Shown: positions 50,774 through 53,700 of the stretch, one piece after another
How positions within the stretch are numbered: position 1 is the first letter of the stretch
How the letters are laid out: the number at the start of each line of letters is the position of its first letter
NCBI RefSeq assembly: GCF_045037415.1
Contig: NZ_CP173438.1
DNA: 64,000 nt
Origin: Escherichia coli
GTDB taxonomy: Bacteria > Pseudomonadota > Gammaproteobacteria > Enterobacterales > Enterobacteriaceae
Direction: 5' to 3' (one strand)
Program-made: the position numbers

Positions 50774-53700
50774 TGACACTAACGCCCGCACATTGCTGCG
50801 GGCTTTTTGATTCATTTCGCAAATGTGCTGATATTTTCCCCTCTAATCATTACAATTTAAATTTATGAATTATGCATTGATAATCGCTATTATAATATCG
50901 TTCCCCTGTGCATTATTATCAGTTTTTCTGGTATTAAAAGGCTGGGCGCTAATAGGAGATGCAATGAGCCACGCAATGTTTCCTGGCATAGTTCTAGTCT
51001 GGATTATAGGTATGCCGCTGGGAATTGGTGCATTTATTGTAGGACTGTCTTGTGCAATTGCAACTGGCTATCTGAAAGATAATAGCATTATAAAGAAAGA
51101 TACCATTATAGGTATCGTTTTTTCAGGAATTTTTGTCTTGACTATCAACAGGCACAAGTCAGCGGATTACAGATATCATTATTACATTACGGTTTACTCT
51201 GCATGGTATCGCCTACCATTTTTGCCACATTAAAAGCAGTCGGAATTATTCTGTCTATATACTATTAATAGCTCCAGGGTCTATTGCTGTCCTCATCATG
51301 CATCGCTTTCATAAGGCATTACTTATCGCCGTAACGATATCAATAACAATATCAGGCGTATGGTTATTATATTTTCTCAACAGAGCCCCAGCGCCGACAA
51401 TCGTCCTCTTATTTGCTGTAGCATTTCTTTTCGCGCTGATAATAATCAATTTTCGGAAACAATAATCTCAACAGTAGAATAAAGAGGCAAATCAATCATT
51501 ACATATATAAGATGGTGCTAATATTGTACCGCCTTTAAATTGAACTTTATCCTTTCACCCTTACACAATTTAAGGAATGCAGATGACTATTTTATCAGCC
51601 CCCAGCCTTTTTCCTGGTAATCGAAAACTTGAAAATCATTAACTCTAAGAAGTTCTGCCAAATCGTTGAAATTACTTTAAATTAGACTCGAACAAATCAA
51701 TCCCTGATGGGGCTTTTACTTATCCATTTAATCGGGTAGATATCGACCTCCATCTGCCCGCCTCAGATTCGTACCTGGTGGAGGTCTTTTTTCGTTACCT
51801 CTTTCCCCCTTTAGTTCAGTATAAAATCATCAAACTAATGCTGTTCACACTATTTACCTCCAGCATTCTATATAAATAATAGAAATAAAAACCCCAATAC
51901 ATAGTGCATTGGCATGACCAAACATCAATGCCATTATACTCGCCTCTGTTAAATACTCGCTAGTTAATATGATAGGCACGCATGATATAACAATCCATAT
52001 GCTAATACATAAATACATCAGTATTTTTCTCATAGTCAGTCCCTGTGATTAACAATCAAGGCATAGTTAAGCATATTTCACATTCAAACGTAAACATTAT
52101 TAATAACATTATATCAATCGAACTGACATCACGATTCAAGCCCTCTTCAAACTGAAGGTTAGAGCAGCGTAGAACATTTCAAAACAATACACTAAAAAAA
52201 TACCTGAACAAAAAACTTAATTCTTTTTTATTGTGAACTTTAGTGATTTTGTCATGCAACTCTTTATTACATTTAGGCCTGTATTATTTCATGGCAACGC
52301 AGATACAGGACCATTTCTTGTGCTATGGATAAGTAATAAGCTAGTTACATCTTATTAAGAGAACCATTTTCACATATCAAGATATCATCACCACCCACAA
52401 TGAATTAAGTATTTTTCTTATTCTTTAGATTAGATACGTAATGAATCCCTAACTCCATTCGGGTGTCATGGCTCTTTCATTTGAAATATATTCATATCCA
52501 ATGTAATATTTCCATGCGCAAATATAATCACCAACCATACCCATCATTTATTACAGAGAATTATTTTATTCACCGAAAGGTTTCACAAAATATCCCCTGA
52601 TAGAAAACTAAAAAACACTGCATAATATCGCTATTCTGGCACTTGCGAAAAATTATATTCTGCACCTGTTGTAGCGTTCTATTTCTCTGCCTGGCAACGA
52701 ATGCACAATGTCCGCCACAGTTTCTGTTCTAATTTCTTCCTGTGTTACCGCATCCTGTACGGGTAGCGCAACACCAGCATGCTAAGCAAGGCTTTCCCAT
52801 CAGATTTCACTACGACTATTTGGGAGCGAGATGGAATGCAGCAGTAAAACGTGCTGGTATTCGCCGCCGTAATCCGTACCATACGCGACATACTTTTGCC
52901 TGCTGGCTGTTGACGGCAGGAGCGAACCCGGCATTTATAGCCAGCCAGATGGGGCATGAAACTGCGCAGATGGTGTATGAAATTTACGGTATGTGGATTG
53001 ATGACATGAACGACGAACAGGTAGCCATGTTGAATGCGCGGTTATCGTAGTTGCAAAGTTTGCCCTCAATATGCCCCATTTAGTACCAGAGAACTGAAAT
53101 AATGCAAGAAAATCAACAAATTACAAAGAAAGAACAATACAACCTGAACAAATTACAAAAACGTCTGCGTCGTAACGTGGGCGAAGCCATTGCTGACTTC
53201 AATATGATTGAAGAAGGCGATCGCATCATGGTTTGCCTCTCCGGGGGTAAAGACAGCTATACCATGCTGGAGATTCTGCGCAATTTGCAGCAAAGCGCGC
53301 CAATCAATTTTTCGCTGGTGGCTGTTAACCTCGATCAAAAGCAACCGGGCTTCCCGGAACACGTTCTGCCCGAGTATCTTGAAACGCTGGGCGTTGAGTA
53401 CAAGATTGTTGAAGAGAACACTTACGGTATCGTGAAAGAGAAGATTCCGGAGGGCAAAACCACTTGCTCACTGTGTTCTCGTCTTCGTCGCGGTATCCTT
53501 TATCGCACCGCAACGGAACTGGGGGCGACGAAGATCGCGCTGGGTCACCATCGTGACGATATCCTGCAAACGCTGTTCTTAAATATGTTCTACGGTGGCA
53601 AGATGAAAGGTATGCCTCCGAAACTGATGAGCGATGATGGCAAACATATCGTGATTCGTCCGCTGGCCTACTGCCGCGAGAAAGATATTCAGCGCTTTGC

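Follow-up and report, generated by a model that had tools for sequence, protein, structure and literature searches.

A 2.3-kb scar between uspF and ttcA of Escherichia coli, very probably the fixed remnant of a Rac-type prophage, and the conserved small open reading frame within it

Rac-type prophages, as known from Escherichia coli K-12 (b1345-b1375), CP-933R/Sp10 and Rac-SA53, are the closest described counterparts of the locus considered here, the interval between uspF and ttcA in a stretch of E. coli DNA of 64,000 nucleotides (nt) (NCBI RefSeq assembly GCF_045037415.1, contig NZ_CP173438.1), hereafter the window, whose position numbers are used throughout. In K-12 the 23-kilobase (kb) Rac prophage is annotated at this site with intR adjoining ttcA, as had been stated in the initial annotation of the window. 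Excision of Rac was shown to alter four residues at the N-terminus of TtcA, so that a lysogen type and a non-lysogen type of the protein are distinguished among strains; CFT073 was listed as the exception, having the lysogen type but "no rac-like prophage in ttcA" (Liu et al., 2015, PMC4632033). As was also noticed initially, the window contains no prophage between the two genes, only AT-rich DNA: 2325 nt from the stop codon of uspF (50776) to the start of ttcA (53102), with a GC content of 37.6% vs 49.2% for the whole window. This interval, referred to below as the scar, is very probably an eroded, fixed and non-excisable remnant of a Rac-type lambdoid prophage. With the Rac prophages it shares the attachment (att) core, the 3′ end of intR, the spacer and the start of ttcA (~98%), as well as the order and orientation of ydaW, lygF and hok. 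It differs from them in size (~2.3 kb compared to 23 kb for K-12 Rac and 52 kb for Rac-SA53) and in the loss of attR and ttcC, which makes the XisR/IntR-type excision described for Rac (Liu et al., 2015) impossible; in addition, it contains a sitD-like pseudogene and an intact open reading frame (ORF) of 59 codons, ORF59, both absent from K-12 Rac.

Other lambdoid elements resemble the scar in part. In Qin-type prophages and in phage PhiR42_1 a homolog of ORF59 lies between lygF and hok on the same strand, and hok is 81% identical to the scar fragment; however, these elements have another integrase and attachment site, and their ORF59 allele is 42% identical at the protein level. The sitABCD cargo of Lambda_2E9 is comparable in that the scar pseudogene aligns to most of SitD and is likewise on the int strand in an attR-proximal position, although the nt identity is 68% and the scar gene has a much lower GC content, is frameshifted and internally deleted, and is not accompanied by sitABC. 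In more general terms the scar corresponds to the "grounded" or domesticated prophages, which are fixed in a lineage by loss of the integrase and an att site, erode and keep constrained patches (Ramisetty and Sudhakari, 2019, PMC6379469), but its reduction is more extreme than usual and the candidate gene retained belongs to no described family. No description of the scar itself was found in the literature, including a search on ttcA, uspF and prophage together. Domesticated defective prophages were reportedly also the subject of work by Bobay et al. in 2014.

As judged from the alignments, the right end of the scar is an intact Rac attL, ~98% identical to that of K-12. Positions 52819-53700, comprising the end of intR, the spacer and ttcA, align with K-12 1412231-1411350 at 97.8% nt identity and with the same relative orientation of intR and ttcA, which identifies the fragment adjoining ttcA as Rac intR. 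This remnant (52819-53050, + strand) consists of the last 232 nt (76-77 codons) of the integrase gene, is 96.4% identical in nt sequence to that of phage Rac-SA53, and encodes a segment matching positions 112-165 of the 172 of the PF00589 model (E = 2e-9); the matches to K-12 intR and to PF00589 answer the concern, raised initially, that the fragment might resemble no recombinase. As the catalytic domain is incomplete and ~335 of the 411 intR codons are gone, it does not encode a functional tyrosine recombinase. The remnant forms the 3′ part of a 102-codon frame (52742-53050), the first 26 codons of which are a read-through of the antisense ydaW fragment and not integrase. The initial annotation had described the last ~100 codons of a tyrosine recombinase ending 52 nt before ttcA; the recombinase 3′ end, the length of the frame and the close spacing were correct, but the integrase portion is shorter and the spacer between the intR stop codon and the ttcA ATG is 51 nt. 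In every intR-bearing genome listed, homology to the window begins at 52819.

The att core is a 26-nt sequence (AAGAAAGAACAATACAACCTGAACAA) located inside the 5′ end of ttcA (53126-53151, + strand), where it marks the attL crossover region of the window. It corresponds to the stretch common to attL, K-12 ttcC/attR and the empty site in an alignment with strain LD91-1 and both K-12 junctions, and is consistent with the attP of 26 nt in the annotation of phage Rac-SA53; in strain APEC O1, homology to the window stops exactly at 53151, the start of a second prophage. The window ttcA (53102-54037, + strand), whose first codons are supplied by the phage according to the junction alignment, RefSeq and Liu et al. 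(2015, PMC4632033), has the same 5′ end as K-12 attL, unlike the empty-site/ttcC type (ATGTCGCAAAATCAAGAAATTAGTAAG, MSQNQEISKK). Since CFT073 carries the scar, with attL kept and attR lost, its lysogen-type TtcA in the absence of a prophage is explained.

At the left end, the window can be aligned with K-12 and the empty site across the chromosomal flank uspF (50342-50776, + strand; RefSeq annotation of the identical locus; 98.6% identity to K-12) and ~75 nt beyond it, and the homology then stops at ~50849. The edge of the scar had been placed at 50810 in the initial annotation, but homology to other E. coli ends at ~50848-50856. Repeat searches and alignments with K-12 and the empty site revealed no att core repeat or copy of ttcC in the window beyond the core in ttcA; the search for residual attL/attR core repeats flanking 50810-53100 that had been proposed yielded no second copy, and the candidate flanking att/ttcC repeats were discarded as short matches at chance level. 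With attR and ttcC gone, the element is unable to excise. The left junction also cuts into something older. The 175-nt intergenic region of the empty site, equivalent to the uspF-ttcC spacer in K-12, includes 51 nt with 76% identity to the 3′ end of intR that retain the NPYHTRH codons and reach a local alignment score of 25 vs 8.8 +/- 1.3 for shuffled sequences (0 of 2000 reach 25). These 51 nt are found at 921-971 of the LD91-1 locus and at 1435090-1435140 of K-12 (NC_000913.3), while in the window only the first half is present (50821-50848, + strand), cut by the scar junction at ~50849 as placed by alignment. On the strength of this resemblance, even "empty" sites hold a relic (~50 nt) of an earlier integrase, and because the scar junction cuts the relic, the empty-type arrangement is older than the block.

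Between both ends, the middle part of the scar (~1.97 kb, 50849-52818) contains the sitD-like pseudogene, a fragment of hok, ORF59, the end of lygF and a fragment of ydaW. Mapped onto Rac-SA53 (int at ~1.0 kb, ydaW at 12.4 kb, lygF at 13.0 kb and hok at 18.0 kb) the pieces are collinear and in the correct orientation, with ydaW on the strand opposite to intR, as in K-12. The ydaW (DUF1627) fragment is internal to the gene (52692-52813, - strand), abuts the intR remnant and shows 82-87% identity to ydaW of Rac-type phages; RefSeq annotates 52692-52807 as "DUF1627 domain-containing protein, partial". The 3′ end of lygF (DUF977), including the stop codon (52567-52700, - strand), has 73-77% nt identity to lygF of Rac-SA53, PhiR42_1 and E. 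coli prophages, and the stop codon is at the matching position in tblastx. The hok/gef toxin fragment (51738-51799, - strand) represents the C-terminal ~21 codons, with 77-82% nt identity to hok of Rac-SA53, the APEC O1 prophage and PhiR42_1; it has an in-frame stop and lacks the N-terminal half with the transmembrane part, so that no Hok/Gef locus (a ~50-codon ORF with mok and sok) is present, and the idea of a retained toxin was rejected because of the truncation and the stop codon. The gene set of Rac-type phages (recET, kilR, racR, replication and structural genes) is missing, the survivors being the ydaW, lygF and hok fragments and ORF59.

The sitD-like ABC-3 permease pseudogene (50850-51465, + strand) has lost ~7 codons at its 5′ end and has two frameshifts and a 48-codon internal deletion. 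Phage SitD, used as tblastn query against this segment, matched with residues 8-102, 151-204 and 202-272 in three frames (73%, 60% and 61% identity, respectively), residues 103-150 being deleted; hence, there is no SitD-like PF00950 permease with an uninterrupted ORF of ~280 residues, nor a sitABCD operon around it. RefSeq describes it as "metal ABC transporter permease, frameshifted", and it is a pseudogene in every genome with annotation examined, in agreement with the broken ABC-3 permease gene of the initial annotation. No intact close relative was detected among 5.8 billion proteins, in which the best intact matches are 52-58% identical; a seemingly "intact" ABC-3 protein of 199 residues (P0001) turned out to be the copy of the pseudogene from another strain, in which indels keep the frame open through out-of-frame sequence. 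In lambdoid phages the sitABCD genes are encoded on the int strand in the interval from attP to the tail fibres, sitA being the one nearest attP, a layout that in a prophage places the cargo next to attR in the orientation that the pseudogene has in the scar.

Altogether, the identity of intR, the attL-type ttcA and the collinear phage fragments support the initial proposal that a prophage was once integrated at this site and later deleted, leaving a scar. According to the model that we infer, a Rac-type lambdoid phage, presumably a single one, would have entered the chromosome through site-specific recombination at the 26-nt core that lies within the 5′ end of ttcA, swapping the first codons of ttcA and its upstream region for phage DNA. 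At least four deletions, of conjectural order and number, would then have stripped out almost the entire prophage. One would have started on the chromosomal side, taken away ttcC/attR and the cargo operon and ended early in the sitD-like gene; another would have reached from the sitD-like gene to the hok region, another would have occurred around lygF, and another would have joined ydaW to the final 232 nt of intR. The outcome would be a 2.3-kb set of collinear fragments in which attL was kept, attR is gone and TtcA is locked in the "lysogen" form, and this arrangement would have been inherited unchanged at this locus in ~19% of complete genomes (ST131, ST73 and ST95-type).

Among 5426 complete E. 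coli genomes the scar block was present in 1044, always at uspF-ttcA and with 98.0-100% identity, and the 3.5 kb at 50200-53700 are 100% identical in many complete genomes, e.g., SK1144 and 81009. When the types of site were estimated from evenly spaced rows of the ranked match lists, ~45% were empty, ~32% were occupied by an intR prophage and ~19-20% carried the scar. The initial annotation had considered that the block might occur unchanged in all E. coli, including those with an intact Rac; it is absent from K-12 and from ~80% of the genomes. Carriers include O25b:H4-ST131 strains, CFT073, Nissle 1917, "clone D i2" and APEC O1 (CFT073, Nissle 1917 and APEC O1 were checked directly), which we take to be phylogroup B2 strains. 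The scar is contiguous with ttcA in 1021 genomes and not in the remaining ~23 of the 1044. In some genomes IS1, IS903B or ISEc40 is found inside the scar (e.g., NZ_CP069583.1, NZ_CP160108.1, NZ_CM133351.1), and with ISEc40 the annotation splits the permease pseudogene into two pieces.

In APEC O1 (NC_008563.1, 1472000-1520000) the scar is followed, directly after the equivalent of 53151, by a complete Rac-like prophage of ~47 kb with recE, kilR, sieB, ydaT, ydaV, DUF1627, DUF977, hok, trkG, tail genes, the genes of cytolethal distending toxin (CDT) type IV, cdtABC, and an omptin gene. This new prophage is flanked by direct repeats of ~330 nt made up of the intR end, the spacer and the start of ttcA. 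Its position at the core implies that the core of the scar is still used as an attachment site, and the history of the site is serial, from relic to scar to new prophage.

The decay of the scar is uneven. In an alignment of 12 lineages (the window, one Logan sequencing-run contig and ten RefSeq genomes spanning the identity range) the variable columns per 100 nt amounted to 5.8 in the sitD-like pseudogene, 6.3 at 51466-51737, 6.0 in the hok fragment and 6.4 at 52113-52688, that is, ~6 variable sites per 100 nt plus indels in the non-conserved parts, as expected of decaying DNA. The corresponding values were 0.7 for uspF and 3.7 for ttcA; the higher diversity of the latter probably results from ttcA segments imported by recombination in some lineages. 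Two stretches stand apart. Within 52689-53010 (322 nt) there was no variable site vs ~19 expected, and the variable sites 53011, 53026 and 53032 are all synonymous third codon positions in the IntR frame. In the ORF59 coding sequence only one site of 180 nt varied (M6V), and none did within 51805-52017. The contrast extends to all carriers: 51805-52112 is at least 99% identical in 1037 of the 1044 scar genomes, and 100% in most of them, whereas the adjacent 308 nt (52113-52420) reach at least 99% in 562 and 97.4-98.7% in 482. RNA folding of both strands of both conserved stretches gave z-scores of -0.4 to +0.25, without a structure signal.

ORF59 (MRKILMYLCISIWIVISCVPIILTSEYLTEASIMALMFGHANALCIGVFISIIYIECWR; 51854-52033, - strand) is intact, is not annotated in RefSeq, shows two hydrophobic segments in its hydropathy profile and has the sequence AGGGA 6 nt upstream of its ATG. 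The "long stretch without ORFs" of the initial annotation is thus accurate for most of 51466-52690 except for this frame; similarly, the expectation that scars keep small toxin-type genes fails for the dead hok piece but holds in that an intact, unusually conserved small membrane-protein ORF was kept. Word-indexed searches with ORF59 recovered near-identical E. coli copies only, while an exhaustive HMMER search retrieved homologs at 38-44% identity. Copies of the 59-codon homolog are located in PV340562.1 (PhiR42_1, 11053-11229), ON470619.1, ON470612.1 and NZ_CP025903.1 (~4131-4310). The PhiR42_1 homolog has 59 codons and aligns without gaps, sharing start and stop and 25 of 59 residues; at 41% nt divergence between the two, the ORF59 frame is the best-scoring of the frames compared and the other frames contain stops. 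In phages and prophages the homolog is situated between lygF and a flxA-relBE-hok-rem-Q block, on the same strand, matching the position in the scar. The phage-type allele occurs in lambdoid prophages of 1584 of the 5426 genomes, where it is without RefSeq annotation or annotated on the opposite strand; together, the scar allele (1044 genomes) and the phage allele (1584) would reach up to about half of complete E. coli. As to annotations overlapping the homologs, there is an opposite-strand "hypothetical protein" in PhiR42_1 and a "hornerin" in ON470619.1 and ON470612.1 (vB_EcoS). Apart from phages and E. coli prophages, the only sources of the family in these data are a few short metagenome contigs.

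Pfam, NCBIfam and PHROGs contained no family for ORF59 (best E = 0.03-0.12, below the cut-offs), PADLOC gave no match, PHROGs gave none for the phage allele either, and a full-text search of the literature did not retrieve the peptide. Two candidate relatives were rejected: the sole IMG/VR match is not a free phage but a prophage contig overshooting into the scar, and a hypothetical gene of 59 residues downstream of hok in the APEC O1 prophage is unrelated. A partial NCBI protein of 87 residues (P0126, from a 12.6-kb contig) has the IntR C-terminus (...QMVYEIYGMW) fused to ORF59 residues 14-59; as the intR end and ORF59 are on opposite strands in the scar, the fusion implies that in this one genome the region was either inverted locally or misassembled. 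Also near ORF59, position 52113 is A on the + strand (T on the - strand) in the window and G (C) in all 11 other aligned lineages, a change that generates a perfect extended -10 box on the minus strand (52108-52116, TGATATAAT) ~75 nt upstream of ORF59, where the others read TGACATAAT. Based on the available sequences, ORF59 is a credible candidate for an undescribed small-protein gene of lambdoid prophages that has stayed intact in the scar. The leading guess as to its role is a small inner-membrane protein that could act on the envelope, in exclusion or in toxin-like modulation.

The second conserved stretch, 52689-53010, includes the ydaW fragment and most of the intR remnant. As ttcA has no other upstream DNA, its transcription must come from phage-derived DNA, and the conservation could reflect a ttcA promoter/leader, selection on the 102-codon frame or a deletion allele spread by recombination. 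This frame is an annotated protein in older GenBank records of CFT073, UTI89, 536 and APEC O1; the few variants of it in the protein collection keep the reading frame. No convincing ribosome-binding site precedes its GTG start at 52742, and a promoter scan gave no strong sigma-70 promoter upstream of ttcA. Renewal of the intR remnant by visiting Rac phages does not fit well, because the ydaW fragment is 84-87% identical to prophage copies, a second intR is usually lacking and the att-proximal end is variable.

It can be proposed, as a real although tentative possibility, that purifying selection keeps both stretches, ORF59 as a putative inner-membrane protein and the ydaW/intR remnants as ttcA promoter/leader or as an expressed Int fragment of 102 residues. 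Such selection would account for the low variability (1 site of 180 nt in ORF59 and 0 of 322 nt in 52689-53010 vs ~6 per 100 nt around them), a contrast that holds over the 1044 genomes, for the retention of the frame, length and ends of ORF59 at the nt divergence of the PhiR42_1 allele, for the synonymous nature of all three variable sites in the 102-codon frame, as well as the rare, in-frame protein variants, and it agrees with the dependence of ttcA on this DNA for transcription. Conversely, the GTG start and the region upstream of ttcA lack convincing expression signals, neither stretch shows an RNA-structure signal, several phage-type copies of ORF59 have altered C-termini, and the 79 nt upstream of ORF59 are not conserved, a signal present with six lineages having gone with twelve; moreover, with no synonymous change in ORF59, constraint at the protein level is inseparable from other causes. 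In its fullest form, still more tentative, the proposal is that ORF59 may be a working two-helix membrane protein of a family of the lygF-hok region, kept by selection in ST131/ST73/ST95-type strains after the loss of the prophage, and that the ydaW/intR remnants may constitute a fixed ttcA control region or an expressed Int fragment.

The low diversity could alternatively be non-functional, if the deletion alleles or an intR renewed from phages had spread recently by homologous recombination, erasing diversity. This is unlikely, even if 52689-53010 straddles the ydaW-intR deletion junction (52813-52819), the scars not contiguous with ttcA (~23 of 1044) and the ~330-nt repeats of APEC O1 show a possible route of resolution, and over part of its length the remnant is separated from the intR alleles of phages by only 0-1 sites per 100 nt. 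The ORF59 stretch is not centred on a junction and has four variable sites within 67 nt on its hok side; the divergence of the ydaW fragment from prophage copies argues against renewal from them, typical scar genomes have no second intR as donor, and the att-proximal end, which should be the most homogenized, is the variable part (53011-53101).

As to the origin of the block, several observations weigh against its descent from one Rac-type prophage. Neither 51466-51737 nor 52113-52566 has a homolog in the phages, prophages or loci compared; 51805-52033 and 52689-53010 do not look like decaying DNA; and no Rac-type prophage carrying this sitD-like gene was found at ttcA, so that the left part could come from a different, earlier or mosaic prophage. 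The scar might alternatively be a stack of at least two successive remnants, an older one from the sitD-like pseudogene to ORF59 and the lygF end and a younger, Rac-derived one made up of the ydaW and intR fragments and attL. Serial use of the site is evident from the int relic in "empty" sites and upstream of K-12 ttcC and from the new prophage added to the scar in APEC O1, the stretch 52689-53010 is far less variable than the left part, and known sitABCD phages have another integrase context. However, all pieces are collinear and oriented as in one prophage, neither an internal att core nor a second int piece was detected in the block, and the junctions are identical in 12 of 12 lineages, which makes stacking a rather doubtful alternative to a single Rac-type prophage. 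An ancestral origin of the AT-rich block, as a chromosomal islet consisting of a metal-transporter operon that decayed and was lost from most E. coli, with the integrase piece alone derived from a prophage, would agree with its constant locus, its vertical inheritance and a permease pseudogene without a close phage-borne ortholog, but is highly improbable, as the block interrupts the int relic that is continuous in empty sites and K-12, so that the empty type came first, the hok, lygF and ydaW fragments and the ORF59 module are in phage order, and the 5′ end of ttcA is of the phage type.

The genes around the scar follow the order nifJ/ydbK, MicC, ompN (49068-50201), uspF, the gap, ttcA (+ strand) and dbpA (- strand), and a terminator scan detected a terminator-like hairpin 3′ of uspF (50784-50803). 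In the identical locus RefSeq already annotates three pseudogenes in the gap: the frameshifted metal ABC transporter permease, the partial DUF1627 gene (- strand) and a tyrosine recombinase without its N-terminus. An Rfam search of 50600-53300 at permissive thresholds produced only sub-threshold matches to STnc420 and sroD (52186-52259). Nearby, the known small RNA genes MicC (48723-48843, - strand), FnrS (55803-55920, - strand) and McaS (62787-62882, + strand) scored above the Rfam gathering threshold.

The scar is a well-known kind of feature, already partly annotated and present in about one fifth of complete E. coli genomes, and it leaves the understanding of prophage decay unchanged. A small published puzzle, the TtcA type of CFT073, is settled by a remnant that is not excisable. 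The start of ttcA emerges as an attachment site repeatedly used and repeatedly eroded, with the relic, a scar in ~19% of genomes, a prophage in ~32% and both scar and prophage in a few. A still earlier prophage may have been the source of the "ancestral" attB region, and possibly also of the "ancestral" TtcA N-terminus. Two parts deserve follow-up, the ORF59 family and the conserved DNA of phage origin that precedes ttcA: the former is a conserved, unannotated family of 59-codon genes that can be flagged as a candidate for small-protein studies, and, with regard to the latter, in major extraintestinal pathogenic lineages the start codon of ttcA and everything upstream of it are phage DNA.

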